Shown piece after piece: positions 14,944 through 41,500 of a stretch of DNA of 60,000 nucleotides. The notes under the pieces are model-generated. The model searched no databases. It was not told the DNA's origin and saw nothing but the letters and a program-made list of their open reading frames with translations. Position 1 is the first letter of the stretch. Every line of letters begins with the position of its first letter. Location: the NCBI GenBank assembly GCA_965235115.1, contig OZ249436.1, positions 9,178,001-9,238,000 of the forward strand, read 5' to 3'. This stretch comes from Laetmonice hystrix. Taxonomy: Eukaryota. The position numbers and the translations under genes are program-made.

Positions 14944-15447
14944 GAGCCCCTGGTCGTGACACTCACACAAACACACAAACATCATGTTGTCGGAGGCGGT
15001 CTGTTTTCGTCACAATAACTGCGCCGCGAGCCCCTGGTCGTGACACTCACACAAACACACAAACATCATGTTGTCGGAGGCGGTCTGTTTTCGTCACAAT
15101 AACTGCGCCGCGAGCCCCTGGTCGTGACACTCACACAAACACACAAACATCGTGTTGTCGGAGGCGGTCTGTTTTCGTCACAATAACTGCGCCGCGAGCC
15201 CCTGGTCGTGACACTCACACAAACACACAAACATCGTGTTGTCGGAGGCGGTCTGTTTTCGTCACAATAACTGCGCCGCGAGCCCCTGGTCGTGACACTC
15301 ACACAAACACACAAACATCATGTTGTCGGAGGCGGTCTGTTTTCGTCACAATAACTGCGCCGTGAGCCCCTAGTCGTGGCACTCACACAAACACACAAAC
15401 ATCATGTTGTCGGAGGCGGTCTGTTTTCGTCACAATAACTGCGCCGC
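14944..15447. repeat. 84-bp tandem repeat x6 spanning the Gv stop codon and proximal 3' UTR
   Basis: Unit starts at 14944, 15028, 15112, 15196, 15280, 15364; on the minus strand each unit carries (G/A)CGGCGCAGTTATTGTGA (AAQLL* in most copies). Confidence 0.95.
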
Positions 15448-15620
15448 CTCGAGATTTTCTTTGATGATGGTGTGCATAACGACCTGGAAGACAACCTGGA
15501 TGTTGGACGTGTCAGTGGCCGTCGTGAAGTGAGGGTAAACCACTTTACCAACGTTATTCACCTGTCTCAGGAACAACATCTGGATAAAGATGGCGGCTGA
15601 GTCGACGTCATAGTCAGCAC
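15430..15620 (-). CDS. gnav: Gv alpha exon 9 ([10 protein letters not shown]...HFTTATD...ENLEAAQLL*)
   Basis: GGCAG acceptor at 15621, G5 motif TTAT, TGA at 15430-15432; 191 nt. Confidence 0.95.
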
Positions 15621-18600
15621 CTGCCAAATATTGAGGGGGATTATTTAAGTTTATCAAGGAGCCAGGATCTAACATAGTCAGCACCTGCCAAATATTGAGG
15701 GGGATTAATTTAATTTATTAAGGAGTCAGGATCTAACATAGTCAGCACCTGCCAAATATTGAGGGGGGATTATTCAAGTTTATCAAGGAGCCAGGATCTA
15801 ACATAGTCAGCACCTGCCAAATATTGAGGGGTGGGAGGGGGATTATTTAAGTTTATCAAGGAGCCAGGATCTAACGTGATAAGACCTGGTTGAAACAGAC
15901 AGTGAGGAACATGCAATGTTTGATAACCTCATGCAGGACACTGGGACACGGAGTCAGAAAGTGAAGTCTGTGGGGTCAGCTCCTTCTCCCCGTCATGAAT
16001 AAGAATGGATGGTAAGGACCTTATTTACCCTACGGGATACTGGGGACCTGTCCCTTCACGGGCCCCATCTGGAGCGTGGTGGGGGAAGGGGCAAAGGTTA
16101 GCAATATGACCAGCAAGGTCAGTAAGACACGGTTAAAGTAGGACCTTGCGGGTAAAGTTGTGACGCCGCACGGGTGGGCATGATTGGCTAATCAATATTG
16201 ATCACCAATCGATTCAATATTAACCAGGGACCTGGCACCTTCGTGGGTGTTCAACGACCTACTTCTAATAACTACCCCACCTTACCTTTGGTAACGAAAA
16301 AATTAAACCACATATATCTTATTACTAGAGCTTTGATACAAAAATACACTCAAAAGTATCATATTATTCTCTTACAGCCTTACAACACTTGACTTCGGCA
16401 TGGAAATTCATAGAACCAATAGATAGAATAGGGAGCCTACAGTCCCCCACCCCCTTGAGAACTAATATAGGCGGCAATTAACTTCTACGCCTCCAATATT
16501 TAGAAAGACGTACCTGTGAAATGTGAGAAGTAATAGCGGAGATGACGGCCTGAGGTTAATATCTTCTCCCGGAACAAGTCCAGCTTGTTCAGAAACAGAA
16601 TCTGAAATACAAAAGGTTCAGGTTGTTATCAGGATCCTATTTCCACTTTCATTTATATAGCACTCCACCATCGCAGTAATCACCTCACGGAAATTTGATA
16701 TTGACCGTAAATTAACATAATTGTATACATAAATATATAATATACGTCGCTTAGGAATATGGAAACAAAAACAGTAAGATAGAAACAACGGTGACATATA
16801 GCAGTCAAATCAAAACACTGCACAGTCTGGTAATACAAGTACGAGAGCTTTGGCACCAGTCTGATTTAACTACACAGTTCCTTGAGATACAAGTACGAGA
16901 GCTTCATCACCAGTCTGATTTAGCTACACAGTTCCTTGAGATACAAGTACGAGAGCTTCATCACCAGTCTGATTTAGCTACATGTGTACAGTTCCTTGAG
17001 ATACAAGTACGAGAGCTTCATCACCAGTCTGATTTAGCTACACAGTTCCTTGAGATACAAGTACGAGAGCTTCATCACCAGTCTGATTTAACTACACAGT
17101 TCCTTGAGATACAAGTACGAGAGCTTCATCACCAGTCTGATTGAGCTACACAGTTCCTTGAGATACAAGTACGAGAGCTTCATCACCAGTCTGATTTAGC
17201 TACATGTGTACAGTTCCTTGAGATACAAGTACGAGAGCTTTGGCACCAGTCTGATTTAGCTACACAGTTCCTTGAGATACAAGTACGAGAGCTTCATCAC
17301 CAGTCTGATTTAGCTACACAGTTCCTTGAGATACAAGTACGAGAGCTTCATCACCAGTCTGATTTAGCTACATGTGTACAGTTCCTTGAGATACAAGCAC
17401 GAGAGCTTCATCACCAGTCTGATTGAGCTACATGTGTACAGTTCCTTGAGATACAAGCACGAGAGCTTCATCACCAGTCTGATTTAGCTACACAGTTCTT
17501 TGAGATACAAGTACGAGAGCTTCATCACCAGTCTGATTTAGCTACACAGTTCCTTGAGATACAAGCACGAGAGCTTCATCACCAGTCTGATTTAGCTACA
17601 TAGTTCCTTGAGATACAAGTACGAGAGCTTCATCACCAGTCTGATTTAGCTACATGTGTACAGTTCCTTGAGATACAAGTACGAGAGCTTCATCACCAGT
17701 CTGATTTAGCTACACAGTTCCTTGAGATACAAGTACGAGAGCTTCGTCACCAACTGATTTAGCTACATAGTTCCTTGAGATACAAGTACGAGAGCTTCAT
17801 CACCAGTCTGATTTAGCTACACAGTTCCTTGAGATACAAGTACGAGAGCTTCATCACCAGTCTGATTTAGCTACACAGTTCCTTGAGATACAAGTACGAG
17901 AGCTTCATCACCAGTCTGATTTAGCTACACAGTTCCTTGAGATACAAGTACGAGAGCTTCATCACCAGTCTGATTTAGCTACACAGTTCCTTGAAATCAC
18001 ATTAGTGCGCTAATCAAAAAGGGACATGAACGCTAGAAACAGGTAACTAACGTTCTTGTGTGTGACGGATATACTTGTGTATACCGTCACAGTATATCGG
18101 TCACACACACAACAGGTAACTAACGTTCTTGTGTGTGACGGATATACTTGTGTATACCGTCACAGTATATCGGTCACACACACAACAGGTAACTAACGTT
18201 CTTGTGTGTGGCGGATATACTTGTGTATACCGTCACAGTATATCGGTCACACACAACAGGTAACTAACGTTCTTGTGTGTGACGGATATATACGCAAGTA
18301 ATTTGAAACTTCTCTCGCCAACTGCCAGACAATATCGGTAATATACGGTAGGCTCGGGGTATTGCTTCTCACCCATACCGCAGGGAAATACTATAGTATT
18401 GCTGTCCGTATGCCATACAGTGTGTGCCACATCTACTTTCACATCACTGACCTGCCAATGCTATCTTACACAGAGAATCCAGCTCACCAACCTTGGGCAC
18501 TGCCACAGTCAAACCTATAGAGTGGTCTACTCATTTTTCTTTCTTTTTTAGTTCTGATTTCATCAACATTCCAAGGGCACGGGACAGACGTTACCATGGC

Positions 18601-21600
18601 AACAGAACGAAACAGTCAAAGGCTGGCGTCCGAAGTCACCTGGAAGGACTGGCGGCCTGTGGTGGGCCTGGTGGTGCACATCACTGATCTGAGAGCATCT
18701 GGCCTCCGTAATTACTGTCAGTGACTGGGTCCTGTGAAGTTACCCGCTCAATGGTGAAGGACACATGATAGTGGAAGCGAGGGAAATGAAAACTAGACCG
18801 TGGCAGCATGTTCGTTAATATGTTCGTTATACTTACTATAGAGGTATCATTGAAGAACTTGGTGTTAACAATTTGCTGGAATAGCTTTAGACTCTCCTCC
18901 AAGCGGTTCTGAAAGAAAATGATGGATTATGATTAAAATATTCATCTCTTAGACGCAAAAAGGAAAGTAAACGAATACTTATTCATCAAATTGTCTATGC
19001 CATCTAAAATCGGTACAGCGTAAATTATCTCGTTATTTTCAATCAGTGCTCCCTATATAGGCCTATTTATGTGAGTGAGAGACAATGCAATACCAAATGG
19101 CGTTCTTTTCATTGTTAGAAGAAATTTTATCCACAAGTCATATTAAAATTTTTCATACTTCAAATCCAATTAACAAGATAACCAACCGTTGCATCCAATT
19201 TTAGGCTTCATCCGATTTCAATAATTCACTAAAAATCCCCGATAGGTTACACCCGCTTAACACTGAACTGCCTTGCAATCTTTAAATTTTGAAATGTTTT
19301 TTTAACGTGGCGGGGAAGCCCTGCACTGTGGCCTGAGTGTGTGTGGGCGTGACTACCCCCCCCCCCCCCCCCCCCGATGATTTGGGAGGAGTTCGTACCA
19401 CTGACGGGTCCTCAAACAGCGTCATGTCGTATCCACTGAGTGCCGTCACAAACAATAGCGCTCGCACGTCATCAAAACATTGGATCCACTTCCGACGCTC
19501 TGAGCGCTGGCCTCCCACGTCAAACATTCTGTTAACATATCAAACCTCAAACTTGACTACAATAGGGTTAGGGTCAATGGTCACACTTACAACACTTACT
19601 GGCCTCCCACGTCAAACATTCTGTTAACATATCAAAACCTCAAACTTGACTACAATAGGGTTAGGGTCAATGGTCACACTTACAACACTTACTGGTCTCC
19701 CACGTCAAACATTCTGTTAACATATCAAAACCTCAAACTTGACTACAATAGGGTTAGGGTCAATGGTCACACTTACAACACTTACTGGCCTCCCACGTCA
19801 AACATTCTGTTAACATATCAAACTCGACTACAATAGGTGGGCAATGGTCACACTTACAACACATACTGGTCTCCCACGTCAAACATTCTGTTAACATATC
19901 AGACCTCAAACCTGACTACCATATAGGGTTAGGGTCAGTGGTCACACTAATTACATCACTTACATCTGGGCACAGATCAAATATGGCTTAGACTTCAGTA
20001 TTACCAATCTTCTATAGCAGTTAATGCACTGCTTGAAAGGATTTTCAGTTGTCTCGAAGGGCTAAGGTACGTTACCTGAATATGATGAAGGGCTAAGGTA
20101 CATTACCTGAATATGATGAAGGGCTAAGGTACATTACCTGAATATGATGAAGGGCTAAGGTACATTACCTGAATATGATGAAGGGCTAAGGTACATTACC
20201 TGAATATGATGCCATTTATTTTGAAGCACGTTTCAATGATGCTTGTCGTCCGAATTCGAGCCCTCAGCACATCTGCTTGAGTAGGTCTGAACTTTTCCGA
20301 GCATATCCGGTCCATATGGTTGAAATAACTACAACAGCAAATGGTACAACGCATGAAGCTCAACGACACATGATTTCAGAGAAAAACACTTGAATAACTA
20401 CAACAGGAAATGGTACAACGCATGAAGCTCAAAGACACATGATTTCAGACAAAAACACTTGAATAACTACAACAGGAAATGGTACAACGCATGAAGCTCA
20501 AAGACACATGATTTCAGACAAAAACACTTGAATAACTACAACAGGAAATGGTACAACGCATGAAGCTCAAAGACACATGATTTCAGACAAAAACACTTGA
20601 ATAACTACAACAGGAAATGGTACAACGCATGAAGCTCAAAGACACATGATTTCAGACAAAAACACTTGAATAACTACAACAGGAAATGGTACAACGCATG
20701 AAGCTCAAAGACACATGATTTCAGACAAAAACACTTGAATAACTACAACATCAAATGGTACTACGCATGAAGCTCAAGGACACATGATTTCATACAAAAA
20801 CACTTGAACTGAAGGGCTTCTTTATTGGGAAATACCAACTTTTTTTTAAATAGCTCAAATGTTAAAAACGATTCTTTTTATTGTAAAAAATGCAAGTAAC
20901 AATAGCTACATTGGTCCTTGCCCACACTCCAGAGGGGGAAATATTCTGGCTAAATTAGATGATAAAATAAGATGGAGATAATGAATGTATTTCCTGAATG
21001 ATCAGTCAGAATCATAATTCAGTCCGGCTATATAGATAGAGGCAGCTAGACAATACATTATGTCCATTAATGATCATTAGCGGCACAGTTGTAATCCATA
21101 CAACTCCCACCAGACCATTAATACGGCACTGTCAGCTAGTAATTCCTTCCCGATAAACCTCATCAATCCTGATAGTTTAAATGGCTTAAAACTTGTTTTA
21201 TCCATGTTGCTTTACAGATGAAGCCCTCCCTCTTTACTTGTCTTAATAATTCATCATTTCCCAAAAAGATTTGTTTCAAATGGCCTGACAAATTGTGACT
21301 TGTGTATAACTTATACAAGGAAACCCCATTATGCAATGACAATTAAATGTATCTTCAGACTACACGGGATACGCCACCGTGTTCTACAGACATAATACAA
21401 CAGTCATCAGCGTGAAGCGCCAGACGTGCATGATAACACCCAGAATCAACGCTCGTCTGAGGTCTGATTAAAATGCTATAGCCCACGTCCATACGGTCTA
21501 TTGCACGTATACGGCTGGCCTCCGTTCACCAACACCTCATCGTCCCAGGCCATGGCCTCATCACTTCTACTTATCACCGGCTCTGGCACTCAAAATATCC

Positions 21601-23424
21601 CATGCATTTCAGCATGGAAATGTCAGAAGTTTTATTCCTCCCGTTCAGCCACCATTGACAGTATTGTGCAGCAAGTGGTTTCTTTGAATTGACTGGTTTC
21701 CCGATGCTGCACAGCCAGCAGCACCAGGAGCGGCGCGCTATCTATCAATCGCAGTGTAGAGTCGGCCTGGCGCAGTGGGGACCGAGCAACTATCGTTGTA
21801 TGCACAGTGGACGGCCGCCAGAAAGCCTGTGCTGGGATGACCAGATTACCGTGATGGGACCTAGGTTACAAACCGAGTCATGATAACACTGAACATAAAT
21901 GGCTATACTCATGTGGTCACACGTAAGTCTCCCAAGGCTTGAAGGCCGACAGTTTCATCGGCTTATTCATACCAACATTTCCATGGCAATCCCCATTGGC
22001 CTTTTCTTCTCAATCAATTCTAAATGCACATAGAAATTCCCTTCTATTTAATCTTATAATGGATGATATCCATTTTTAATCAACTTTTTTCAACAACATA
22101 AGGTGCATACGGCAGAGTGACTAATTAACTACCATATTTCAGATGTATTTAAATGAAACCTAAAAATGCCACTGCAATATTCCAACGTTTGAGATTAGAA
22201 TCCGCCACTGAAAGCGAAATATTTTATTATTTGCGTTTTATCTAATAACCTCCATTCCTTTATAAAGTTATGAGGGTTATTTTATAACCATTATCATTTA
22301 TACATGGTATCGTTATATCAGTTGGTTCCACTTGTCTTTTTCTGACATAGTAACACCAGAATACTGGTTTAAACAACCAGTGTGTTTTCATTTTTAAATA
22401 CCGGTAAAATATATAGTTTATAGTTAGCTTCGCTCTGACTTTTCCTGATAATATTGTAATACGTAATCTAATCGGACGTCAGTCGTAGAAACGGTACTGA
22501 TGGCTTGTGATAATTTTTCAGCTTGCAATATTAAAGGTCAACGTGTGCATCGAATTATGGAGAGAAAAGCTGGTGAGAAACTGTAGCAATGGAGTGTCCA
22601 TTAGTGTGAGCGTCCGTGAGACTACACTTGTCACCCCCACATTGAGCCATATGGATGGCAATACAATACACGACCAGTTGTGTGTCCATCTCCTGATTGT
22701 AGTGGGGACCCCGACTCCCTCTCCCTGCTGCCACCTTATAACTTCTCCATGCAATCTCTGGACCATGTGACAACTCGCAACCAGCCCAGTCACTACCAGA
22801 ACCGACATGCAAATCTTTTGCCACGCGTCAACATGAAAACATGATCACACACGAATGAATAATTGATTAACACAGCATGCTACGAAAAATCACTCCGAGG
22901 CAAAACCAAAATATAACGGCTATGTAGACCTAATTTCTAGGTTTGACTTCACTCATCAGAATACCTCTTATAATATATTGATTGTGATGGTAGAGGGCGA
23001 TTGTTTGAATCGTTTTTCGAGTATCCACAGATCTGGTATGATGGAAGAGCCTCTACAGTGGTAGTTCCAGTGGTAGCTCCCCACAGACAAGACGGGAGAG
23101 GTGACTGACTGGTAGGTACAGAGCTCTGCTCAAACCTGCCACAGTCTTCCGATCTGAGGCCGATCCACCACCACCACCACTATCACTGCAATTACCACCA
23201 CCGCCACCACCAAACACACAACCAATTAGGGGACATTTTAATACATCTCAACGATATATTTAAGGGGGCGTAATTAGAGCAAAAGTGTACAAAATAATAT
23301 TATCCTTATCGGATAGAAGGGTGCAAGATGGATTAGGTCAGAGGCCTCCGTCGATATGTGATTCGCCTGGCAACTGAGCTGTGGGAAGACGTGTATGTGT
23401 GTGTGTGCTGCATGGAGCAGCCAG

Positions 23425-23505
<81 letters not shown>

Positions 23506-26500
23506 CCCTGCCACATCGCTTGCCAGAATGAGAATGGCCGGCGTTCATTATTATTATGCATAACACCCCGCGATCAATACCTGGCTCGACGGTGCTGACG
23601 CCTGGTGCCACGCAACACAACTACACTGATTAAACAGTATTGATCTTTCGAGCCCAATTCGAGAACCACTCGACGTTTGTTAAAGCATTATTGCCTTTAC
23701 GTGGCACGTATCCAGACTATGAGTTTGAAATACATTACGGTTAATCCTTGTACTGACCATAAGGCAGCCATGATTCTACGCTCATTACCATGAGGTGGGG
23801 GTGGGGGTGGGGTCCTGAACCAAAACCCACACGCTCGGGAAAACCTAATGAATGGAGCCGTACCCTGTAACTAAGAACCCCTTGGTGTATGAAGGCAATG
23901 TTAGTGGTCGTAACGGGGGAACAGAAATCGCTGAATCGGCAAGATTTATTTGCTCACATTCAGCCAATGCAAATCTTTGTGGATTTAAATTCATTGAATT
24001 TTGCTGTTTGTGACATCAGGTTTTTATACCATTGATTTACTCTACATCCCCTGTAACATAAGAAAATTAAAGAAAAACTTACTACACAGCCGAGTCATTG
24101 AGTTCATACTCGTATCCTCTGTCGACAGCCAGTCGTATGCCCTGATCGTTCCACAAACACTTGAGGGCGTTAAAGATGAACGGCAGCATGATCTGTTCTT
24201 CGTCATAACATCGCTGGCAGGCCAACACCGTCTGAGCATGGAGCTGAAGTCCAAAAAATACACCATGGAAACGTTAATACACATGTATATGCCAACACCG
24301 TCTGAGCATGGAGCTGAAGTCCACAAAATACACCATGGAAACGTTAATATACCAACACCGTCTGAGCATGGAGCTGAAGTCCACAAAATACACCATGGAA
24401 ACGTTAATACACATGTATATACCAACACCGTCTGAGCATGGAGCTGAAGTCCACAAAATACACCATGGAAACGTTAATACACATGTATATGCCAACACCG
24501 TCTGAGCATGGAGCTGAAGTCCACAAAATACACCATGGAAACGTTAATACACATGTATATGCCAACACCGTCTGAGCCTGGAGCTGAAGTCCACAAAATA
24601 CACCATGGAAACGTTAATACACATGTATATGCCAACACCGTCTGAGCATGGAGCTGAAGTCCACAAAATACACCATGGAAACGTTAATATATGCCAACAC
24701 CGTCTGAGCATGGAGCTGAAGTCCACAAAATACACCATGGAAACGTTAATATATGCCAACACCGTCTGAGCATGGAGCTGAAGTCCACAAAATACACCAT
24801 GGAAACGTTAATACACATGTATATGCCAACACCGTCTGAGCATGGAGCTGAAGTCCACAAAATACACCATGGAAACGTTAATATATGCCGACACCGGCTG
24901 AGCATGGCGCTGAAGTCCACAAAATACACCATGGAAACGTTAATATATACCGAGGTATATACGAAACACTGAAATGTCACGTTGAAATTAAAGATATCCA
25001 TCAATTACATACATCTAGTTTGGATTCACTAGCTGTGTCTCGTGTCCGAGAGAGGGCAATAGGCCTAGTGAACCTGGCGGAAAGTTAAACAAATCTGCCC
25101 CTCCTCCGGTTTAATCAACATACTTCAAGGTTTCAAGGTAACTTCAGTTGTATTCATGTTTAAATTAAAGAACTGTGGCGTATCTGATCCTTTAAGTGTA
25201 AATCCTATAATCATTTAATGGTGATTGTGTTGTGGTCTGGAATCACGAGGGACACTTTCCACCAACTCGCTGCGCGCCATCTATATCAGGTAGTTAGTTG
25301 TTCAGCTAGCCGCCAGATGGCAGCGCTCCAACCTGTATGTCCACTTTCATGTAGGCCTGAAAGATATGGCCACTGGCCAGACTCAGAGCGATCTAAGAGC
25401 GAGTCGGTAACACCGGCTGACATCAAAGAAATGATAATGAATGTTACGGATGCTGTAAAGGCACCCCCCCTACTATCCCCAGGAGAAACAACTCCATATT
25501 TCCCCGACCACTCCGGGTTATTCCCCCATGGTAACTTTCAGACAAAATTTTGGGTATAGGTTCGGGTTAAGGTCAGGGATAGGGATAGGATATAGGCGGG
25601 GTATGCTTTTGGGTGGGACTGGGATTAGGGGTTAGGGATAAGGTCGGGGCTATGGATCTTTACTTTCGGCGACCAAATTTCGTGGGGTCTAAGTTACCAC
25701 GGGGGATGTACCCGACGCCGGTCCTGTCTCATGCACCGACTGACCTTGTTCTTTGGGTTGTCGAGGTTGATACGGAGGAGCCCCATACCATTCAGTACGT
25801 ACTTCATGGACGACAACAGGTTCTCGATCACCGTTGTCTGAAAATATATCATTTATCACGGTTATAATACAAGGTACGAAATACAGTCAATTGTGTCATA
25901 GCTTCATCAAAACAAACCTGAAACAACCGCGGATCCAGCACTGCATGAAAGGGGGGCGCTCTTTTAGGGCTCAAGGCGAAAGTGCGCGGGGGGGGGGGGC
26001 TCCCTCCAGTGTTTTTTTTTTTAATTTAGAAGGCAAAAAAAGGAAAAACACGCTGTTTCCCGGCAGCTGGAGGTAGAAATTGTGACAGAAATGAAAATGT
26101 TCGCCTACAAATTATATTTTTCACTTCTTCAAAATAAAGAGGGGGGGGGGGGGGGGCTGCGCGCCTCCCCCTTTATTCGAGCCTGTGAAAATGGTCATTC
26201 ATTTATTTCTTTCACTGTCGCATGTAGTATCTGTAACATGTGTAGACAAAAATAAGAACACGCAGCAGCATTTACATGTTACTACTGTCATTGCTCCATT
26301 TCATTTCAGCTGCATGGACACTCTCCAAGTTCTATTCCATAACACATCATTCTCCATTTCATTTCAGCTGGATACTCTCCAAGTTCTATTCCATAACACA
26401 TCATTCTCTATTTCATTTCAGCTGGAAACTCTCCAAGTTCTATACCATAACACATCATTCTCTATTTCATTTCAGCTGGGCACTCTCCAAGTTCTATTCC

Positions 26501-29500
26501 ATGACACATCATTCTCCATTTCATTTCAGCTGGATACTGTCCAAGTTCTATTCCATGACACATCATTCTCCATTTCATTTCAGCTGGATACTGTCCAAGT
26601 TCTATTCCATAACACATCATTCTCCATTTCATTTCAGCTGGACACTCCCCAAGTTCTATACCATAACACATCATTCTCCATTTCACTAAAGCTGGATACT
26701 GTCCAAGTTCTATGCCATAACACATCATTATACCTAATACCATTACCATTGACACAGCTCACTTTAAGGTCAACCGACGACACCCAACCAATTAATTGAC
26801 TGCATGCTTACATGCATGGTTGAACGTTTTACTGGCAAACCATCTTGTTAGCAACATTATGCATGTTCCTGGAAATTACCTAGAAGTGTCAGAAAATCCC
26901 ATGGCGAAAGGTATATTAATATACTACGAAAGGTATACATGTAGTAGTACTACATGGGCAGATCTGTAATGGTTCGTGTATAGCAATTTGCCACCATTAC
27001 GTCAGCGTTAGACCCGCCGGGTAAAGTTCAAACCAGGCACTAAGCTGCTTGATGTATATCATACTACAGACCAGTGTAAATGTTTCCATTGTGTGTGCGG
27101 TAATGTAATACCGCTGAGCTTTGATCAATGGACCTAGTAACGTAAACATTATGGTCTAAACCACACCTTAGTATACTGAACCACCAGGAACCGTCCCCAC
27201 GTCTTCTACAACAATAAAAATACGCATGTATTTCCTATTTACCAACTCCTTTGTTAGATATTGCTACAATGTCAGAATGACTTCAAAGATATATTTTACA
27301 ATTCTAAGGATTACATACATGTAAATGATCTAATACTAACTTTAAAGGCCCTGAATTAATTCACTGACTGTAGGTTCGGTTGTGGGAGGGGGGGGGGGGA
27401 CAAATTACTTGTAAAGTCTTGTATATTATCTCCCCTGTGGCAGCCGGCCCACCCTCGACAAGTTGATATCAGTATACTGTAAAGTACATGTCTAATATAA
27501 GCGACATGACCTCGCCACCACGCACGGAGTTCTGCACGGTGGGATCCTCAAACAGGTGTTCCATTTAATGCTTTGTATACCATGCATAAAGTTATCGTAC
27601 TTTTAGCTGCGTGACATGATTCATGCTGCAATGCATTGGGCACGAGCTGACAATTACGTATAGGTTACGGTCAGTTACTGTTATAAACTGTCAGTTACTG
27701 TTATTTATAAACTGTCAGTTACTGTTATAAACGGTCAGTTACTGTTATAAACGGCCAGTTACTGTTATAAACGGTCAGTTACTGTTATAAACGGTCAGTT
27801 ACTGTTATAAAAGGCCAGTTACTGTTATAAACGGTCAGTTACTGTTATACACGGTCAGTTACTGTTATAAACGGCCAGTTACTGTTATACACGGTCAGTT
27901 ACTGTTATAAACGGACAGTTACTGTTATAAACGGTCAGTTACTGTTATAAACGGTCAGTTACTGTTATACACGGCCAGTTACTGTTATACACGGCCAGTT
28001 ACTGTTATACACGGCCAGTTACTGTTATACACGGTCAGTTACTGTTATACACGGCCAGTTACTGTTATACACGGTCAGTTACTGTTATACACGGCCAGTT
28101 ACTGTTATACACGGCCAGTTACTGTTATAAACGGTCAGTTACTGTTATAAACGGTCAGTTACTGTTATAAACGGTCAGTTACTGTTATAAACGGCCAGTT
28201 ACTGTTATAAACGGTCAGTTACTGTTATAAACATCTACTGTCAGACCGTTCAGAAGTATTCAACTATATTCTACACGAGTACGATGTACCACTAATTGTC
28301 CGATCCATTCGTAAATTACCACGGCTTCATTAATTTAGAACGATTATTATGTTAAAAGATCGGAAACGTTGCCGGTGAGACTCCTTGCGACTGTCTCGTG
28401 AATGCTATCTTAGTACAGCCATGGCAATGTACCACAGGAAACGTTGCCGGTGAGACTCCTTGCGACTCTCTCGTGAATGCTATCCTAGTACAGCCATGGC
28501 AATATACCGTACCACAGGAAACGTTGCCGGTGAGACTCCTTGCGACTCTCTCGTGAATGCTATCCTAGTACAGCCATGGCAATATACCACTAGATCCTGT
28601 TTCCACTTCCTTAATTTATTATTGATCCACTTTTTATATCTTTTTATGGAGAGCACATTCGTGACAGATTCCCTGCCATTCTGTCTATAAAACATCCTGA
28701 ATACGGGCCAGGGTAATTAACCAGGCTGATGGGAACTCAGTGTTTCTTAGAGAAGTCGATATGCAGCCTGAAGTCGCGTTTAACTGTACAATCCCATGTA
28801 GTCGTTTGTAGTCGGTGGTATTTGCCATAGTTGACATACCTAAGATAACCACTCATTAATTGGCAGCGGGCCAGCAGAGCGCGTGTTCAAGTATGCCCCC
28901 CCCCCCCGTTCATTGTTGGATCCAAACTTTCACCTCCGATGTTAACCACGCGAATATATGTCAAGAATATGTGATGCATGTCTGCTTACAATAAGCCGTT
29001 AAGGTAAGTGTATAGGCATGTCTATTAGTAGTTAAATTTGGGACTTATTATAGTCGGACAGAGCAGCCTTTGGACCTTGTAATGCATTCACAAAACCTTT
29101 AGAAGAAAAGAGTCAAATTAACAGTTCAAACCAGTCTTTATTATACTGTCCATTCTTCGTCCTTTAAAAACAACTCTTCCTTGAATATTATAATCTTTAC
29201 GTCTTAGTGCCCCGAACCCTCTTAAAGACCAAACTTAAAAGCTCCTATCTAAGCTAGGATATCAACAATAAACATGGAGAATGTGTGCAGTCTTTCTCCA
29301 TCATTTATCATAACGTGACAAAGACTAATCCTTAGAAAGGCAGGATTCTTCTATCAGCCTTGAAACTAGACTCTCGACTTTAGGACACGCCATAACCACA
29401 TAGCTTAGATTACAAAGTTTGTTATAGTCTTACAGTAATCATAACCAGCCAGTGCATGACGTGTGGTAATTTTAGAGATTACCAAAAGAGATTGGCCTGA

Positions 29501-32500
29501 CATTATGTATAGACGTAGAAATGGTGCAAAAAATGCCTTACGTTTTGCTCCTCGCCCATGCCTGTATACCCTACTATAGAACTGGCAGAGCTGCGGGACC
29601 CTTCTGTATAATCATATCGCAGCCTTTGGGTCGTTATTTGCTTCTCTAAAGGCGGACTCTATGCGATTCTTTGACCGACCGACGCGACGGTGGAGTTGCA
29701 TCGCAATGAGTCGTGTCGCTCTGTCTGAGTCCGCCTTAAGACGAGATATTTGAATTTTAATTTATTCTGTACCTTTGTCTTTCACCCGAGAGGAGCCAAG
29801 TATGCAAACGACTCCAGGTAATAACATATACACAATGAGAACAAGAACACAGACAGAAACACACAAGAGAGAATGTGCGAGTGGTTGACAGAGACAAATG
29901 AACGGGAACAATAAATACTTAGGCCTAGGGAGGGCCTCTCAGTCACCTTTACCCGGAAGAAAGGGTTAAAAGAAAGGATCAAAAGAAAGTACTGCCGCGT
30001 TGTTGCTTTTAAGAAAGTGTACTTGCTCAGTAGATACCGTAAGCCTATTAACTTTTAAACAGCCCCACGGGCTCCGCGGACGGGACTTCGGGGACTTCTC
30101 ATCGTCTCCCACTCATCCCCATTTTACCTGCTCGCTCACAGTCACATTGCATTCGAATCACTGGAGGCCCAACTACCATAAGTATGTACACTGCACAGTG
30201 TTTAGGCCTAACACTCACAGAAATGAGAGAGTGGGACATAATGTGTTGCAAACAAAGTCAAAGCACGGTTATTATATTTTCAAACAAGCGACAAGAGTTT
30301 GTTATTTTAACAACCACATTTAGAAGGTAGAAATCTCTCTTAATGAATTTTTTTGGGAAAACTCCATTTCTACCCTCGTATATATCCTGGTTCATCAGAC
30401 TACAGCTAATTTATGCACCCATTAATACTCCCATTTAATCAACTAATGATAATTCCACATACTGTCGTTACGTACTAGTTACCCATCACCAGTGAACCCT
30501 ACAATCTGTCGAATCATTTGTTGTCCTCAGGGCGGAAGTGTTCACTACGCATCATTATAATACGTTTAGCCTGAGGAAACGATCCATCAACTAATTACCT
30601 GCGTGACACACGGTGGTCTATGTACTCACACGTACTTATAATATACATTGTACCGGGACACCAGTTCATTTGTACCTACATAACAATACAAGGGACCGTC
30701 CTCAAGTCCTGGCTTAAGCTTAATTTCTTCAGAACACAGTTTCATTAATGAAATTCAAATCTGTGTAGGGTACTCCTTTACCAAAATGGAAGGGGAGGGG
30801 GAGGGGGGAGGGAGGGAGGGGGACGGGGGGGGGGCTCCCGTCCAATCTTTGAATCTTCCGGTGCCTATGTCCCTTACCATATATTATTACCGTGCCTTGA
30901 TTGCAATGCATAAGTCTGTTTCCTTTGTGTTAAAGGTTTTAAAAAGCGCTCTAATTGATGTAATAAGACTAACAATGTGGTGTCGTGGTAGTTAATCCCT
31001 CAAGGTGTTCTATAATATATAAAACAAGCTTTACTTACAGCTCCTTACAATCTCCAAATTTTGAGTTTATAAGTAGGCCTGCTTATTGACTACATAGGAC
31101 GGTTGTGGGTAAAGCAAACGTAACAGCCATTTGGTATCTTTACAAACTGTGATTTATACCACACTGACGTCAAGGGTAAAGCTGTTATTCAGGACCACTT
31201 ACAAAATGTTCACCGTCTATTGACGATCAGGTTCATTGTTGATAACGGCACCGCAGTCCTAATATCAATATCATCGCATATCTGCATGATGTCAGGTGCC
31301 TTATGAATATACACTCTGACACCGTTATGATTTAGGCATAAAGCACCAGGCACACTTATTTACGTGCAATATTGATTACTCGTGCATATCGTCAATATAA
31401 ATCTCCCTAATTACACACCATGCATTATACAAAATGTTCTATCAACCTAGCCTCAATCAATGTCCCGTTTACTCTCCGCGAATGTATAATGTTCTCATCA
31501 GCACATTCATAACAGATTGATTTATGGTGGCCTTTAGTTTCATCTACTGGTACTTAAATACACCCGATACCCTACATTTCTTCCAGTTCACGAAAGGCTG
31601 CTAAAATTGAAATTAAGCAATAAAGTTAGTTTTAAATAAGTCAGACCAATTCAATGACAAATATTTGTCGACTCCTTCACCCAGTAATTCTGTATACTGT
31701 ACGTTTCCATGACAGTGTATGACATTATATTGATGTCATGACAACCCAACCAATGTTATGGTAAGTGACATGTCAACAGTCCATTGTATACTGATGTCTG
31801 TAGTCAACGTAACCTGTAATGCTTAGCCCGTCAACATGCCACCTGGAGGATAATGCATCTAGTCTTACAAAGTGATATGTTCAGTCTAGCCTGAAATTAC
31901 TACAACTTCTCACGGCATAAGTTATTCGGTATTGTGTATTGGACCACTGGGCGAAACCAAACATGGGGCAAACTACCTAGTAATAACATTACCCTCCCTC
32001 GAGCTCTGCCTTGTAGCTTTTTATAGCATAATTCATATAGCACTGGCACTTTTTTCGGTACAGACTGCCATAACTTGATTCGACGTATAGGAATGTACGA
32101 CATAATTAAATGAGTGATAGAAAACAGATGATTTCTGTGTAAAATCGAGGTACAATGGACGTTTAGAATAGAGACTGATTATTTTATAGGTGATTGTTGA
32201 GATCCAGAGATATAGCCGATCTTAATTATGACAAACCTTATCAATCGCTATTCGCGACCGTTACCGGTTATGTACAATATTTGAAATAACGTTCACAAGA
32301 TGAGCTAACGTTTGGTAGGTTTGTTTATGTTATGGTGAAAGCCCTTGGATAACGTTCACAAGATGAGCTAACGTTTGGTAGGTTTGTTTATGTTATGGTG
32401 AAAGCCCTTGGATAACGTTCACAAGATGAGCTAACGTTTGGTAGGTTTATTTATGTTATGGTGGAAGCCCTTGAATAACGTTCACAAGATGAGCTAACGT

Positions 32501-35500
32501 TTGGTAGGTTTATTTATGTTATGGTAAAAGCCCTTGAATAACGTTCACAAGATGAGCTAACGTTTGGTAGGTTTGTTTATGTTATGGTGAAAGCCCTTGA
32601 ATAACGTTCACAAGATGAGCTAACGTTTGGTAGGTTTGTTTATGTTATGGTGAAAGCCCTTGAATAACGTTCACAAGATGAGCTAACGTTTGGTAGGTTT
32701 GTTTATGTTATGGTGAAAGCCCTTGAATAACGTTCACAAGATGAGCTAACGTTTGGTAGGTTTGTTTATGTTATGGTGAAAGCCCTTGAATAACGTTCAC
32801 AAGATGAGCTAACGTTTGGTAGGTTTGTTTATGTTATGGTGAAAGCCCTTGAATAACGTTCACAGGATGAGCTAACGTTTGCTAGGTTTATTCATGTTAT
32901 GGTGAAGCCCTTGAATAACGTTCACAAGATGAGCTAACGTTTGCTAGGTTTGTTCATGGTATGGTGAAAGCCCTTGAATAACGTTCACAAGATGAGCTAA
33001 CGTTTGGTAGGTTTGTTTATGTTATGGTGAAAGCCCTTGGATAACGTTCACAAGATGAGCTAACGTTTGCTAGGTTTATTTATGGTGAAAGCCCTTGGAT
33101 AACGTTCACAAGATGAGCTAACGTTTGGTAGGTTTGTTTATGTTATGGTGAAAGCCCTTGGATAACGTTCACAAGATGAGCTAACGTTTGGTAGGTTTGT
33201 TTATGTTATGGTGAAGGCCTTGAATAACGTTCACAAGATGAGCTAACGTTTGCTAGGTTTGTTTATGGTGAAAGCCCTTGGATAACGTTCACAAGATGAG
33301 CTAACGTTTGCTAGGTTTATTTATGGTGAAAGCCCTTGGATAACGTTCACAAGATGAGCTAACGTTTGGTAGGTTTATTTATGGTGAAAGCCCTTGGATA
33401 ACGTTCACAAGATGAGCTAACGTTTGCTAGGTTTATTTATGGTGAAAGCCCTTGGATAACGTTCACAAGATGAGCTAACGTTTGCTAGGTTTATTCATGT
33501 TATGGTGAAGCCCTTGAATAACGTTCACAAGATGAGCTAACGTTTGCTAGGTTTATTCATGTTATGGTGAAGCCCTTGAATAACGTTCACAAGATGAGCT
33601 AACGTTTGCTAGGTTTATTCATGTTATGGTGAAAGCCCTTGAATAACGTTCACAAGATGAGCTAACGTTTGCTAGGTTTATTCATGTTATGGTGAAAGCC
33701 CTTGAATAACGTTCACAAGATGAGCTAACGTTTGCTAGGTTTATTCATGTTATGGTGAAAGCCCTTGAATAACGTTCACAAGATGAGCTAACGTTTGGTA
33801 GGTTTATTCATGGTGAAAGCCCTTGGATAACGTTCACAAGATGAGCTAACGTTTGGTAGGTTTGTTTATGTTATGGTGAAAGCCCTTGAATAACGTTCAC
33901 AAGATGAGCTAACGTTTGCTAGGTTTATTCATGTTATGGTGAAAGCCCTTGGATAACGTTCACAAGATGAGCTAACGTTTGCTAGGTTTGTTTATGTTAT
34001 GGTGAAAGCCCTTGGATAACGTTCACAAGATGCGCTAACGTTTGGTAGGTTTGTTTATGTTATGGTGAAAGCCCTTGGATAACGTTCACAAGATGAGCTA
34101 ACGTTTGCTAGGTTTGTTTATGTTATGGTGAAAGCCCTTGGATAACGTTCACAAGATGAGCTAACGTTTGCTAGGTTTGTTTATGTTATGGTGAAAGCCC
34201 TTGGATAACGTTCACAAGATGCGCTAACGTTTGGTAGGTTTATTTATGGTGAAAGCCCTTGGATAACGTTCACAAGATGAGCTAACGTTTGGTAGGTTTG
34301 TTTATGTTATGGTGAAAGCCCTTGGATAACGTTCACAAGATGAGCTAACGTTTGGTAGGTTTGTTTATGTTATGGTGAAAGCCCTTGAATAACGTTCACA
34401 AGATGAGCTAACGTTTGCTAGGTTTGTTCATGTTATGGTGAAGGCCTTGAATAACGTTCACAAGATGAGCTAACGTTTGCTAGGTTTGTTTATGTTATGG
34501 TGAAAGCCCTTGGATAACGTTCACAAGATGCGCTAACGTTTGGTAGGTTTATTCATGGTATGGTGAAAGCCCTTGAATAACGTTCACAAGATGAGCTAAC
34601 GTTTGGTAGGTTTGTTTATGTTATGGTGAAAGCCCTTGGATAACGTTCACAAGATGAGCTAACGTTTGGTAGGTTTGTTTATGTTATGGTGAAAGCCCTT
34701 GAATAACGTTCACAAGATGAGCTAACGTTTGCTAGGTTTGTTCATGTTATGGTGAAGGCCTTGAATAACGTTCACAAGATGAGCTAACGTTTGGTAGGTT
34801 TATTCATGTTATGGTAAAAGACCTTGAATAACGTTCACAAGATGAGCTAACGTTTGGTAGGTTTATTCATGGTATGGTAAAAGACCTTGAATAACGTTCA
34901 CAAGATGAGCTAACGTTTGGTAGGTTTATTCATGTTATGGTAAAAGACCTTGAATAACGTTCACAAGATGAGCTAACGTTTGCTAGGTTTGTTCATGTTA
35001 TGGTGAAAGCCCTTGAATAACGGTCACAAGATGAGCTAACGTTTGCTAGGTTTATTCATGGTAAGGTGAAAGCCCTTGAATAACGTTCACAAGATGAGCT
35101 AACGTTTGCTAGGTTTGTTCATGTTATGGTAAAAGCCCTTTGATAACGTTTACAAGATGAGCTAACGTTTGGTAGGTTTGTTTATGTTATGGTGAAAGCC
35201 CTTGGATAACGTTCACAAGATGCGCTAACGTTTGGTAGGTTTATTCATGGTATGGTGAAAGGCCTTGAATAACGTTCACAAGATGAGCTAACGTTTGCTA
35301 GGTTTATTCATGGTATGGTGAAAGCCCTTGAATAACGTTCACAAGATGAGCTAACGTTTGCTAGGTTTATTCATGGTATGGTGAAAGGCCTTGAATAACG
35401 TTCACAAGATGAGCTAACGTTTGGTAGGTTTATTCATGTTATGGTGAAAGGCCTTGAATAACGTTCACAAGATGAGCTAACGTTTGGTAGGTTTGTTTAT

Positions 35501-38500
35501 GTTATGGTGAAAGCCCTTGAATAACGTTCACAAGATGAGCTAGCGTTTGCTAGGTTTATTCATGTTATGGTGAAGCCCTTGAACTGATGGAGGAGAGATA
35601 AGTTGTCTACGCTGACCGAGTCAGGATGAATTCGATGATACTGGTTGATTAATCACAACAGGTGGAAGATGACACTGCATTATCTCGAATAACGTTCATG
35701 TTAACACAAAATAGCGACTTCTGGGTCAACACGCACTCCTGCCCAGCCTACATCAGCCAACACACAACCATCAGCTAGCCGCTACAGCAGGGCTCAGGTT
35801 ACTTGGAGATTTGTTACAGCAGGAAAAACAAAAACCATAAGTCACTATTGTTGATCCACAATAAAACTTAAAACACGCGCAGGTATTTGAGACTTCCTTC
35901 AAGAGCAGTTTTTCAATTGACAACATATGAAACAAAGGTTCGCACTGTGGGTAAAGGAATTATTCCGTGTGTAAATCAGCAGAATAAATACTGGACAGAA
36001 ATGTGTATAAAACAACTCTGAGCTGTTTCCGTTTTCAGCAAATTAGCAAATCCGCCATTTTTTCTTATTTGACTTGACGGCAAATACCGTACATGAATGC
36101 ATGCGTAAGGTTGACTTATGGGAAAGCTGAGCTATAACATATATTACAAGAAGGAAGTAATCAGTGTAGCATGTTTCCTCCATCCCTCGCGTGATCTAAT
36201 CAACAAATAACCTCTTTCCGATTTCATCAATAATTCAACTTTTGTTACCCTCAGGCTGACACACAGTTCGTGTTGTAGTAAGCCCACCGATATGTCTGGG
36301 GGTCCTTTTAAATCTTTGCAACTCTCTCAGAGTCTTGAACAGTGCATCAACGGTTGAGATTTATACTTCGTCTTCTTAACGTTGTTTTAAGGTCACAAAG
36401 TTAATCTCATTTAATGCCAAGTTACATCCCATCAGTCTCATATTGTAAACATCTACAATCCTCCTTCATGCATATCCTCTTCACAAGAATTACATCTCAA
36501 TCAAATCGCAAGAAAAACTTGCGGACCTGTCGCCATTTTAAGCTTAAATTAATCGTGCAACTGACAAAAAACTGATTCAAGGTCAAAGGTGTGAAATAAG
36601 TTGACGTATGAAGATCCAGGATACTGTACAGTTCGTTACCTGTTGTTCTTTAACTACATGTATACCCTTGTCTGTGCACCATTAGCCCACTGTTTGTTTA
36701 CATCTAAAGCTTCCCTTTTGAGCCCCTCGCGTTAACACATGAACTGTTCACCTCTGTCAGTGGGTCTGCAGTTCTGAGTGAGAAAACTACACAAAACGAT
36801 GACAATTCTCAATGTCTCTACATTTCGTGCCCCCAATCCTGCTTGTTTAAGTCCCAGTTCTCACTAGAATCAAAAGCAAGTTCGAGGTCATCGCAGCAGT
36901 GTCAATAAAATGAAAAAAAAGAAGAGACGGTGCACAACCAAACAGTGTTGTCACAAACCGCCCGATGCCAGAGCCCTTACTCTGAGGTGTGTAGTTTAAA
37001 TGCTGGTCCTGCGGCCATACACTGGGGGAACCGTCTGTGATTTATATTCGTATTGACCCTTGTGGATCGTGTCAGAGCTGTTTTCATGTTCAACACATGT
37101 ACTTTTTATGCTATTTCCCGTCTCAGTGAAGGCCACTTGTGACGAGGGAAAAAAACACTTAGGTTACACAGAACAGAATGAATATACAAATAAACAACAA
37201 AGAGATTATTCATGTTCACTGAAACATGAGTGCATGCTCTGAAAACTACAGAACCTTCAACTGAATATCTTATCATCGTGTAGAGTATATCCTGCATGGC
37301 TTTGTGAGAGCCATTAGTAAGACACAACTCCCAAACCGTCATTTGGTATATGTATTTATAAACAAGGCTAGCCATGCAGAAGGCTTATCAAACTCCAAGG
37401 GGCTGATCTGACGGGCGTGACCCTTTGCCCCCTTAGCAGACTCACCACCTGACCCCATCTACTGTCAAACAGTTGACATGACTGACAGCAGTGACCTTCG
37501 CTCTGACAAGTCACACCATGACTTTCTCAACGGCTTCCTCCCCGTGAAACTGAAACTGGAGAAACCCGTCCCAATCACTAAACAATCTCAAACATTGCCA
37601 TGATTTAATGTTTTGTGACACCTCACACGGAAAGCGACGCATCCTTATACAATACAAGAAAGAAATTGAGAGAGAGAAGAGATAGAGGATGATGAGAATT
37701 ACTTTGAGTTGCTTTCACTCTCGCTGTGATTCTCAGATGTGTGCTTCTACGAAATCTAAGGAAGTCAAAGCCAAAGGAAAGTTCTACAGCCCACAACTAA
37801 ACTGTGGCCGGTTTCATCAATAGCGATTCCTAGAGAATACTAGACCTTTGTGTTACGTAATTTGTAGTTTCAATTATAAGAATGACCTTTTCCTCATTGT
37901 TACCTTTACCATAATATACCCCATGGAAGGTGTTTGGTGGGGTCGTGAACTCTGACCACTGACCCATGGCCGGTACTATCAGACTGAGGCGAGTCAGAAG
38001 GTCACACGTAGGGACCCCCTCCCGTATGTGTCAAATGAGCACTGATCAAAATTACTCCCAGTACGGTATCCCATTCTCTGGTTGGTGTCAGTATTCTCTG
38101 ACATCACCACTCCCACACTGTCATCCCGCCAAATCACCACAAAACCCAGGACTCAGCTACAGTGGGGGGTAAACTGCCACTGAGCCGCTGAGAACATTCT
38201 CTGGTTGGTGTCAGTATTCTCTGACATCACCACCCCCACACTGTCATCCCACCAAATCACCACAAAACCCAGGACTCAGCTGAAATTCTAATTGTACTCT
38301 CCACTTGACCCCACACAGTCAGATCTGACCCAAAGCCATAAAACTTTCAAGGGCTCACCTCTAGGACACCGTAAGAGGGTACTATGGACTGACTCCCGGT
38401 ACCTGAGCAAATACAATGGCAGGTATTCGGTCTTTGATCAGTGACAAGTGAAGGATGTACGTGGGCTGCCGGCCGGCCAGGGTGGGGGTTGGCATACAGG

Positions 38501-41500
38501 GTGCTGGGAGGTCCCGATGGTGGGTGAGGGAGCCGACCTCTTATCTCATCTGTCACCTTAATGAGGATCCTGCTGTGCTCATCGCTCTCTGTCTACACTT
38601 CACATTGTAACCCACACCAGACCTCACACTGCTAACAAACCTAATGTTTCTCTTTGGTAACTTCACGTAACAAAAACGACAGGATAGTGACCCCCTCGCG
38701 TTTTCCATTTGACTGCGAAGAATTATAAGCAGTTCTGTAGAGGTGTCGCCGGTTTTTTCTTTTATATTCAGGAGTTTTCATACTTGAATGGTTTATTATG
38801 CAATGAAGCGTGAAAACGGCATTAGGTCCTCTCCTGTATGCTTCAGAGTTATCGGCCTTTGCCCTTCCAGACATTAATCTTAAATCAATGAGATGCTATT
38901 ATGCATATTCAGTAGGCAGTCACCGTTTAAAGGTCACACTCGTAGTAGTAACTATTAAAGCGGACAGCTTTATTCCCTGCGGCACTGGGGGAGGTTTATA
39001 GTGAATGGGTCTGGCGTTGACCAGATTGTTCCGGTCAGTGTTGGGGTCACTTTAACCAGAGGGATAGCCCATAAACACTTCGGACATATTTTGGTCATCA
39101 TAAAGGCTACAGGTTGTATGCCGTCGGGCGGCGGTCACGTTAGTAATGACAGAGGGTGAAGGGGTAGGAGAGCTCAACCCTCAACCACCAATGTTGGCTT
39201 TCCAGAGTCCAGATAATGGTCTACCATTGACAACAAGAACACCCAAAGACTTTGCCCTCCAGCTGGCTATATGGTGGCAATAGGATTTTCTCCTTTCGGA
39301 CATAATAAGGGCCTTCTCTTTTGATTGCCTTCAATGCGAAATAAATTCCACACTTTTCGGAGAAATGGCTTTTTATGTCCTTTAACAGGTATCTGATCTT
39401 CTCTGAAAGTAAACACTATGAGCTATATCTTACTTATTTGCGATTTCCCCCTTATCTTATCCAAATGACTGCTTCTGTTTTTATCTGAATAATGACCGGT
39501 ATATTAACTCCTATATCTTCTCGTTGGTTGTTTACCGTACCAGCAGCCAGTCAGGACAGAAAGGATGTTATTCCCTTGTGTAGAAACTCCCAGATTTGAG
39601 ATGACAGTGGGCCGCCTGGCAAGGACAGGTGCTGACGTCAGGTAATACCACCCGTAGACGACCAAATACCTGCTCAGACAGGTCATAATTGGGTCGGTGG
39701 AGCAGAGATTTGGGGCGAGGCACAGACGTCTTGGACGATTACGGGCACACTTATTACTACAGTGACCCCGGACCCAGTCCTACTCACTTTTGAAAGGATG
39801 TCTTGGCTACATAATACTATGTTAGAGGGAAACCTGTAAAATCGACCAGTTTGTATATCTCTGCTCTCTGCTTTCTCTTGATGTACGCGTGTGATGAAAC
39901 AAGCAGAATAGCCCTGGGCCAGAGAGTCCAGTGTTGGCAACTTGGCGGTCGTGGAAGTGGGCGCTATGGTTGAAAGCTCGTGGTGTGGTTCCAAATAAAA
40001 TGTTACTTTTCATAAGAGATCACAGCTCCAAGCATTTCAGGGTTATGTCTAGCCCGATTTGGCCATTCATACCTTTTGAAAATTCCTTGTGATTGCTGAA
40101 AACTTATGCTAACACAATATAAAACCATTCCAATTTAAGTGTTAGATGTTGGTGTATAGTTTGGACATTAAATTTATTTACAAACACTCCTACATAATAT
40201 TGGACCTCGTACTTCTAGAGGTTTACGGTAAAGTCAATATACCGTACACGTCGTTTTCCAGCCAAACCTTTGCCAGTATGACATACCTATGCTCTATCCT
40301 CTCCGGGATTCAACAATAGAAAAAGGTATTCGCCTCGATAATACCACCTCAGCAATGTGAGGTATTTCGAGAGTAGTGTTTTTACGGCTGTAACCTCTAA
40401 CATGGCATGCCATGGCCACTCGAGTCTGGGATAGGTACATGGACAGTCGGGGCCACGTGGGCGGCAGGACAGCTCTACACACATCTCCATTGTATTTTTA
40501 TACTTTTTTTGTACCCGTCATTTTTGTACCACGGATACGGGGTCTGATCTGTAGCGGGGTCTGGTCTGTAGCAGTGGTAGATCCCCCCCCCCCTTTACCT
40601 TTTTTTCTTACAGAGCCTTTTGAATTGACCATTTTGGACCCCTTTTGCCAGATTTTCCCCTTGGATACCCCTCTCTAAAATCCTGGATTCACTCCTGCAT
40701 ACAGGCCTAGATAAAACATAATACAATACTGATCTTCAAAAAGTAAAATCTTCTATGAGGGCATATTGTATATAAATCGTGGAATTTAGTGTAGTTTAAT
40801 TTACACAGTGCATATAAGAAGTTATAACAAATATCACTAAACTGAAAAGCGTAGCGTCAGTTTTCGATGCGTGACATCCTTTGAAGGGAGGAAGAATAAA
40901 ACATGCTACCTGTCTCCTCTTACATGTCACTGGCATGTGTCTGGTGACGGTCCCCTCAATAGGCCGACATCATGGTTGACATGTAGAGTTAGTGCAATTA
41001 CGCTTAGCCAAAAAAAGGAGATAATTTGGGCTGAAGATAGCTTGCACTGGCGGCGGGCGCTTGACATGCGTGTGTGTACCTAGCATGGAATTGTCGCACT
41101 TACGGCGACGACACCAAGAGTTGTGGCGAGTGTCAGGTTTCATGTCGAGCCGGTCACGATACCTCCCTAGATTATCGACCGACGGCAAAACACGCCGGAG
41201 CATTTAATAGATTTTAAAAACCTAGTGTAAGTCACGAGAGTCAACAAAGTATGTATGCAGAAGTTTAGGTGCGGTAGCACGAGTCCATGACAAATTAACA
41301 TGAAATCCCTAAAAAAACATGTCTTTATTGAGGAGGGTGATCAGTCGAATTTCAGTTCTGAATGCAGGGATTAGACCAGAGAAGTAATGGATGTGATTAT
41401 CTGGATCCCTCACACGGTAACACCCCTTTATCTCCGTGGTAGTGTATCAGAAAATGACAATGAGTTATCAGAGGTGGACGACTTGAAAGCATGTATGGGT

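Follow-up and report, generated by a model that had tools for sequence, protein, structure and literature searches.

What becomes of a gene when a tandem repeat multiplies one of its splice junctions? The question is raised by a 60,000-nt stretch of the annelid Laetmonice hystrix (assembly GCA_965235115.1, contig OZ249436.1, positions 9,178,001 to 9,238,000; the window), in which the junction of intron 5 and exon 6 of a probable Gv-type G protein alpha-subunit (G-alpha) gene lies within a 93-nt minisatellite. Upstream of the authentic junction, four repeat copies each carry an acceptor, 21 nt of exon sequence and a donor, which the preliminary description of this DNA took as candidate micro-exons that would duplicate the catalytic DVGGQ motif. 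Tandem repeats that span an intron-exon boundary are known from amphioxus under the name 'mirage' (PMC3087553, PMC3902484). We propose, with a probability of about 80%, that the array is such a mirage minisatellite, a side product of this genome's general tendency toward minisatellites at exon-intron junctions, and that its decoy splice sites are mostly silent. Positions are those of the window unless a contig is given, and the gene and its arrays are on the minus strand.

Structure of the exon 6 array

Tandem Repeats Finder reported a single array at 19507-19948, with a period of 93, 4.9 head-to-tail copies and 91% matches. The unit is made up of the final 71 nt of intron 5 and the initial 22 nt of exon 6, and the last copy of the array is the authentic acceptor with the start of exon 6. 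The 12 bases 5' of every 21-nt unit, atatgttaacag, are those found 5' of exon 6 at 19528. This acceptor is identical in all five copies, which bears out the earlier claim of four decoy acceptors identical to that of exon 6, and decoy and real acceptors remain identical over at least 70 nt. Counting from upstream, decoy unit 1 (19887-19867) consists of AACAG, then AATGTTTGACGTGGGAGACCA, then GTATGT, and reads MFDVGDQ; unit 2 (19806-19786; MFDVGGQ), unit 3 (19713-19693; MFDVGDQ) and unit 4 (19620-19600; MFDVGGQ) each have AACAG, 21 nt and GTAAGT. The spacers measure 60, 72, 72 and 71 nt and all run from GT to AG, with CTAAC present in each 71-72-nt spacer. The phase at the end of exon 5 is 2, and adding one to four of the units in silico preserved the reading frame, the inserted heptapeptides (MFDVGDQ or MFDVGGQ) alternating D, G, D, G from upstream. 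When a decoy acceptor was used in silico without its junction donor, the frame hit TAA at the junction. The coordinates, spacers, motifs, phase and in-frame inclusion given in the preliminary description were all reproduced to the base.

The same description held that the repeat junction had created the donors. The junction does rebuild GTAAGT, with the G of the exon's CAG, but a GTAAGT (19963-19958) already exists in unrepeated intron sequence bordering the array on its left and is the source of the junction donors. A 93-bp segment over the intron 5/exon 6 junction would have had its left breakpoint at this intronic GTAAGT and its right breakpoint after the G of the exon's CAG; slippage or unequal exchange would then have expanded the initial tandem duplication to about five copies, and the alternation of the G/A variant suggests that the array grew two units at a time.

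A search of the whole assembly (627 Mb, 35 contigs) with the 93-nt unit returned five matches, all of them inside this array, which speaks against a pattern due to chance. Since the unit occurs nowhere else in the assembly, a dispersed repeat or mobile element was rejected as its source. Identity to the reference unit was 100, 99 and 98% in the inner copies and 83 and 87% in the two outer copies. The array thereby has every structural feature of a mirage that could be tested: its size (a period of 93 nt, against 10-160 bp for amphioxus mirage units), its span across the boundary, a terminal authentic copy and concerted evolution. Intron 5 measures 671 nt, of which 586 nt are the intronic parts of its two arrays.

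An intact host gene, probably of the Gv type

The array sits in an intact G-alpha gene at 49609..15430, located by tblastn with a hemichordate homologue and then refined to exact exon ends and translated. Its nine coding exons lie at 49609-49486 (E1), 41599-41508 (E2), 25837-25745 (E3), 24243-24083 (E4), 20328-20200 (E5), 19528-19399 (E6, 130 nt), 18908-18837 (E7, 72 nt), 16601-16514 (E8, 88 nt) and 15620-15430 (E9). The coding sequence (CDS) is 1080 nt long (359 aa), and all eight introns, from 490 to 15,670 nt, are GT-AG. The intact 359-aa frame uses the last acceptor of the array. Pfam G-alpha (PF00503) matched all four exon open reading frames (ORFs) tested, with exon 6 alone above the curated cut-off. 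In full-length comparisons the protein shows 76% identity with one protein of 359 aa; a Branchiostoma protein reaches 73.5%, and a fish 'G protein alpha v1' reaches 65% over 359 aa. Invertebrate proteins of 359 aa that were automatically named 'G(o)-like' are 66-76% identical, and the last exon is about equally far from the solved Gz, Gq, Go and Gi chains (33-36 bits). The nine-exon layout and the split between exons 7 and 8 are consistent with the description of GNAV, which in several phyla has nine coding exons and this same split (PMC5896119). From identity and exon layout, the gene is provisionally assigned to the Gv type. The assembly's mitochondrial COX1 agrees with an annelid source, being 90% identical to phyllodocid polychaete COX1 and having only annelids among its best named matches.

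This is the only recognisable gene in the window. Among the 123 window ORFs (stop to stop, at least 75 aa), 38 are located in tandem arrays or G-alpha exons and were omitted; the 85 that were scanned gave only a weak, low-complexity Atrophin-1 match below the cut-off. Of the eight acceptors, that of exon 6 itself has the weakest pyrimidine tract (Y 0.44, G 0.28 at -20..-3), and the donor of this exon, GTACGA, is weak. In intron 6, 23 nt past that donor, an uninterrupted run of 20 G occupies 19356-19375 of the sense (minus) strand.

Copy number and assembly support

Assembly errors classically arise at tandem repeats, and the amphioxus draft genome held a mis-assembled mirage (PMC3087553). The array could in the same way be an artefact whose copies were mis-joined or over-expanded. 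Three public sequencing runs, from one sample and one study, contain 0.28-0.42 of the words of the stretch and were taken as DNA because contigs built from them continue from exon 6 into the intron, with no joints. In run X1 the depth was 52.6 for the contig of unique exon 6 sequence and 281.4 for the repeat contig, a ratio of 5.3, which supports about five copies; this depth argument is limited in that the runs may come from the assembly's own source sample. The copies also bear variants of their own, namely the G/A difference, GTATGT, and 4-nt and 8-nt deletions. Against this evidence, an assembly artefact is very unlikely.

Boundary arrays in the same gene and elsewhere in the genome

Within the transcribed span of the G-alpha gene, 5 of the 19 arrays with a period of at least 10 lie across a splice site; a sixth array extends across the stop codon. 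Besides the exon 6 array, there is a donor array at exon 5 (20056..20211; 31 nt, 5 copies), whose unit takes in the last 11-12 nt of the exon, its donor (GTAATG) and roughly 20 nt of the intron. The acceptor array of the same exon (20324..20808; 69 nt, 7 copies) repeats the end of intron 4 with tgttgtag and the first 5-9 nt of the exon; that of exon 4 (24221..24948; 70 nt, 10.8 copies) repeats the end of intron 3 with gacttcag and the first 23 nt of the exon; and that of exon 9 (15609..15875; 64 nt, 4 copies) repeats the end of intron 8 with tttggcag and the first 12 nt of the exon. The stop-codon array (14944..15447; 84 nt, 6 copies) contains the last 15 nt of the CDS, TGA and 66 nt of 3' flank. 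All six arrays, between 14944 and 25000, start 5-23 nt within a coding exon, from which they run out into non-coding DNA.

The preliminary description had also offered the in-frame units as a frame-safe way of neutralising decoy acceptors. The other arrays of the gene contradict this as a property of such arrays, because they are not frame-safe: the exon 5 and exon 9 acceptor arrays hold about 8-9 and 11-12 exon bases, non-multiples of three as read, the junction of the exon 4 array has no donor, and read-through of the four decoy donors in the exon 5 donor array immediately meets TAA.

Boundaries elsewhere in the genome were sampled through Pfam searches of the assembly, in which exon matches were taken with 1.5-kb flanks and mirages were called by eye on the printed sequence. 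In G-alpha paralogues, 29 exon matches (58 boundaries) were accompanied by 26 arrays, two of them at an exon end. One is a clear mirage, in a Gi/o-like paralogue (C13:168272-171433, locus 1658-2350; 70 nt, 9.6 copies), and repeats the acceptor gtgttgtag with the exon bases AACCG; the second leaves a gap of about 15 nt before the acceptor. For myosin-head exons, 41 matches with 82 boundaries came with 27 arrays, seven of which lie at or near an exon end. Four of these were judged to be mirages, one at a donor (C12:11022056-11022529; 34 nt, 13.9 copies) and three at acceptors (C18:5557641-5558437, 61 nt, 12.5 copies; C18:5566017-5566382, 57 nt, 6 copies; C20:22392033-22392362, 59 nt, 5.6 copies), and the other three begin 20-50 nt from the splice site. 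Outside this gene, mirages were found at 5 of the 140 sampled boundaries (70 exons), or about 1 boundary in 28. On the same chromosome as the window, a 55-nt acceptor array in an EGF gene and a 53-nt donor array in LIG1 were seen directly. The many junction-straddling minisatellites of this genome fit a mutational by-product, and the exon 6 array would then reflect genome-wide minisatellite formation at exon-intron junctions, not a device of this gene.

Several further features of these loci were recorded. Arrays with a period of at least 10 make up 29% of the transcribed span of the gene, against about 10% in G-alpha paralogue loci, and intron 2 (15.7 kb) holds a 63-nt minisatellite of 53 copies that extends over 3.3 kb (32285-35583). 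Several mirage acceptors of this genome end in tgttgtag, tgttgcag or tgttaacag. Some 700 nt downstream of the acceptor array in the EGF gene there is a second array, of 45 nt and 19.4 copies (L036 locus 2157-3029). The G-alpha gene at C1:48232070-48267837 is matched by no more than two long open frames, of 194 and 179 aa, which are separated by about 32 kb; unlike its many-exon paralogues, it may be intron-poor.

Splice competence and possible coding role of the decoys

If the 21-nt units were true alternative micro-exons, their regulated inclusion would give Gv isoforms with one to four extra MFDVG(G/D)Q heptads by switch II, which might, for example, be inactive or dominant-negative. The anatomy of the units is what such exons would need: 21 nt is a multiple of three, each unit is flanked by its own full acceptor and a donor and is symmetric in phase (2-2), and all four inclusion products stay in frame. 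The decoy donors match 6-7 of the 9 positions of CAG/GTAAGT, and the eight real donors of the gene match 5-8. The content of the units argues the other way. Asp stands in place of the second Gly of DVGGQ, the invariant glycine of the G3 motif, in two of the four copies, and since this position has been lost in half of them, the copies show no sign of coding constraint. Among the columns of the copy alignment, differences number 5 events in the 39 acceptor-plus-exon columns (60-98) versus 16 in the 59 columns before them (1-59), a contrast that we do not treat as a real difference, and the exon-like part is not clearly better kept.

Comparison with a relative points in the same direction. In a 110-aa read-through genomic ORF (P0001), whose exon 6 is 98% identical, no second MFDVGGQ is present in the 51 residues upstream. 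The upstream intron-derived residues of P0001 are unrelated to those of this window, and for this reason the array looks lineage-specific. The units therefore display neither the coding constraint nor the conservation in relatives expected of cassette micro-exons, by two tests that are both weak. From the structure of G-alpha proteins, residues added between beta3 and the DxxGQ/switch II segment should disrupt either that strand or the switch, and extra heptads in this place would be expected to disable the protein's switch function. Together with the lack of frame safety in the other boundary arrays of the gene, these points make regulated micro-exons decidedly improbable.

RNA structure, as modelled, does not hide the array from the splicing machinery. 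The 481-nt array transcript folded worse than its shuffles (z +3.49; 100 of 100 folded at least as well), there were no inverted repeats in 19380-20340, and known RNA families gave no match at the gathering score in the 60-kb window.

In the mirage account, productive mRNA would join exon 5 straight to the last acceptor, which must be used because it belongs to the sole copy that is continuous with the 130-nt exon body. The decoys would stay mostly silent, the 21-nt 'exon' being too small for acceptor and donor complexes to define without the remaining exon. We infer this silence from general splicing knowledge and from the RT-PCR results in amphioxus, not from data on this gene. Should a decoy occasionally be used, either seven residues would be inserted in frame in the beta3/switch II region, probably giving an inactive protein, or translation would end at the junction TAA.

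Excess of arrays at junctions

Whether chance alone would bring so many arrays to splice sites was assessed with a null model in which each array was collapsed to one founder unit and placed uniformly on the gene. Under this uniform model the five junction-straddling arrays of the gene compare with 0.47 expected (P 9e-5), and in the exon-dense 3' part only, four were observed versus 1.09 expected (P 0.013). With 5/140 boundaries as the background rate, the gene also appears as a hotspot within its own genome (P 0.0016 for at least 4 of the other 15 boundaries).

Several of these results weigh against the reading that we prefer. The excess persists when the exon 6 array is left out (four observed versus 0.39 expected, P 0.0007) and is present in the unbiased sample (five junction arrays versus 1.36 expected, P 0.013, on calls made by eye), so a purely random by-product does not account for it. 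The 7/9 match of the array's donors to U1 equals or beats that of 6 of the 8 real donors, and the exon 6 array is the most splice-competent among the arrays inspected. Some decoy inclusion is plausible from these signals, because the acceptors are identical, the donors match U1 and CTAAC is present in each 71-72-nt spacer; the silence of the decoys is, for this gene, only inferred. Low-level isoforms longer by multiples of 21 nt would not surprise us. A mutational bias toward junctions, or an effect of tolerance or selection, is needed to explain the junction excess and the presence of six arrays in one gene.

Selection is the core of a second alternative, in which the clustered, identical acceptors and donors around exons 4, 5, 6 and 9 would attract U2AF/U2 and U1, thereby adjusting how fast or how efficiently splicing proceeds or sending a fraction of the transcripts to decay. 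The excess of junction-straddling arrays over the uniform model and the concentration of six such arrays in one gene speak for this alternative. A mutational bias could equally give the junction excess, however, the sequences of the copies drift freely, and splicing is reported to be unaffected in amphioxus (PMC3087553, PMC3902484). We consider selected tuning of splicing unlikely.

A third possibility is that minisatellites are drawn to junctions, or kept there, by a process that depends on splicing signals, and that the exon 6 array, through decoy acceptors combined with the inherited GTAAGT donors, yields an in-frame ladder of Gv isoforms with duplicated G3 motifs. Both the junction excess and the way in which units begin fit this possibility without proving it. 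Six acceptor arrays were read closely. In five of them, namely those with junctions at 19866, 19785, 19692 and 19599 (exon 6), about 20320 and about 15609 of the window and those of the Gi/o-like paralogue and the EGF gene, the intronic portion of the unit begins with GT or one base away from it (GTAAGT, GTGTTT, G/TTAGAT, GTTTCC and GTTACA), which is not so for the array at exon 4. The myosin arrays add one further case (G/TGATAT) and one counter-case (CTGATG). Because the regions are G+T-rich, these GT starts may be due to chance. If true, the idea would represent a step toward new exons and introns from mirage repeats, and we regard it as a long shot. A functional interpretation of the array is not supported, and the account of a mirage minisatellite with mostly silent decoys remains the one that we favour.

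Significance and comparison with known systems

For the G-alpha gene itself the array probably matters little, as a tolerated intron repeat. As a natural experiment it is of wider use: a row of five identical acceptors, four of which have a consensus donor 21 nt further on, poses the question of how the spliceosome picks the one that belongs to the real exon. If about 1 boundary in 28 is affected genome-wide, gene predictors and RNA-seq aligners would encounter the pattern often, with mis-annotated 'repeat-containing' proteins as the outcome. The junction excess, if confirmed genome-wide, would bear on the origin of these repeats, which the amphioxus papers left open, as well as on models in which tandem duplication gives rise to introns and exons.

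Neuronal micro-exons of animals are cassette exons of 3-27 nt that are conserved between species and usually have unique sequences. The decoy units resemble them in their size of 21 nt and in preserving the frame. They differ in being recent copies of the start of the adjoining exon, with no copy in the 51 residues of the one relative compared.

A closer parallel is offered by the Rogers model, discussed in PMC3087553, in which introns and exons are created by internal tandem duplication. A duplicated exon fragment bounded by AG and GT within a repeat, as found here, could become a new small exon with its intron. In contrast to the model, there is no sign that any decoy has been recruited, and recruitment would duplicate a catalytic motif instead of extending a tolerant region.

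The 37-bp variable number tandem repeat (VNTR) in intron 7 of human F7 likewise has a first unit that spans an exon-intron boundary, and only its first, exon-adjacent donor is used, the identical pseudo splice sites remaining silent (PMC1557585). Its nearest counterpart in this gene is the 31-nt exon 5 donor array. In F7 the repeated sites are donors, of which 5'-to-3' scanning takes the first, whereas at exon 6 they are acceptors and the last of five identical ones must be picked. The first-site mechanism of F7 does not carry over to the exon 6 array, which needs its last acceptor.

The amphioxus mirages are the closest known relatives of the array. They have been described in globin genes (BflGb6/BflGb9), with Adh3 and other loci cited (PMC3087553), and PGBD5 and troponin C have since been added (PMC3902484). 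Many of their units carry AG/GT signals and RT-PCR showed regular splicing; inner copies are homogenised and edge copies diverged, and the mechanism of origin was left unclear (PMC3087553). We found no description of junction-straddling arrays in annelids in the literature searched, which included a paper on earthworm metallothionein (PMC12783039), as far as the sources were available and with subscription journals outside its coverage. The array at exon 6 shares with amphioxus mirages a boundary-spanning unit, a splice site copied head-to-tail, an authentic copy joined to the exon body, homogenised inner and diverged edge copies, and the AG/GT signals, and in both systems acceptor as well as donor boundaries are hit. 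It differs from them in its annelid host and in belonging to a single gene with five such arrays and one more at the stop codon. A further difference, known from sequence, is that each decoy here forms a full 21-nt unit that keeps the frame and has a consensus donor.

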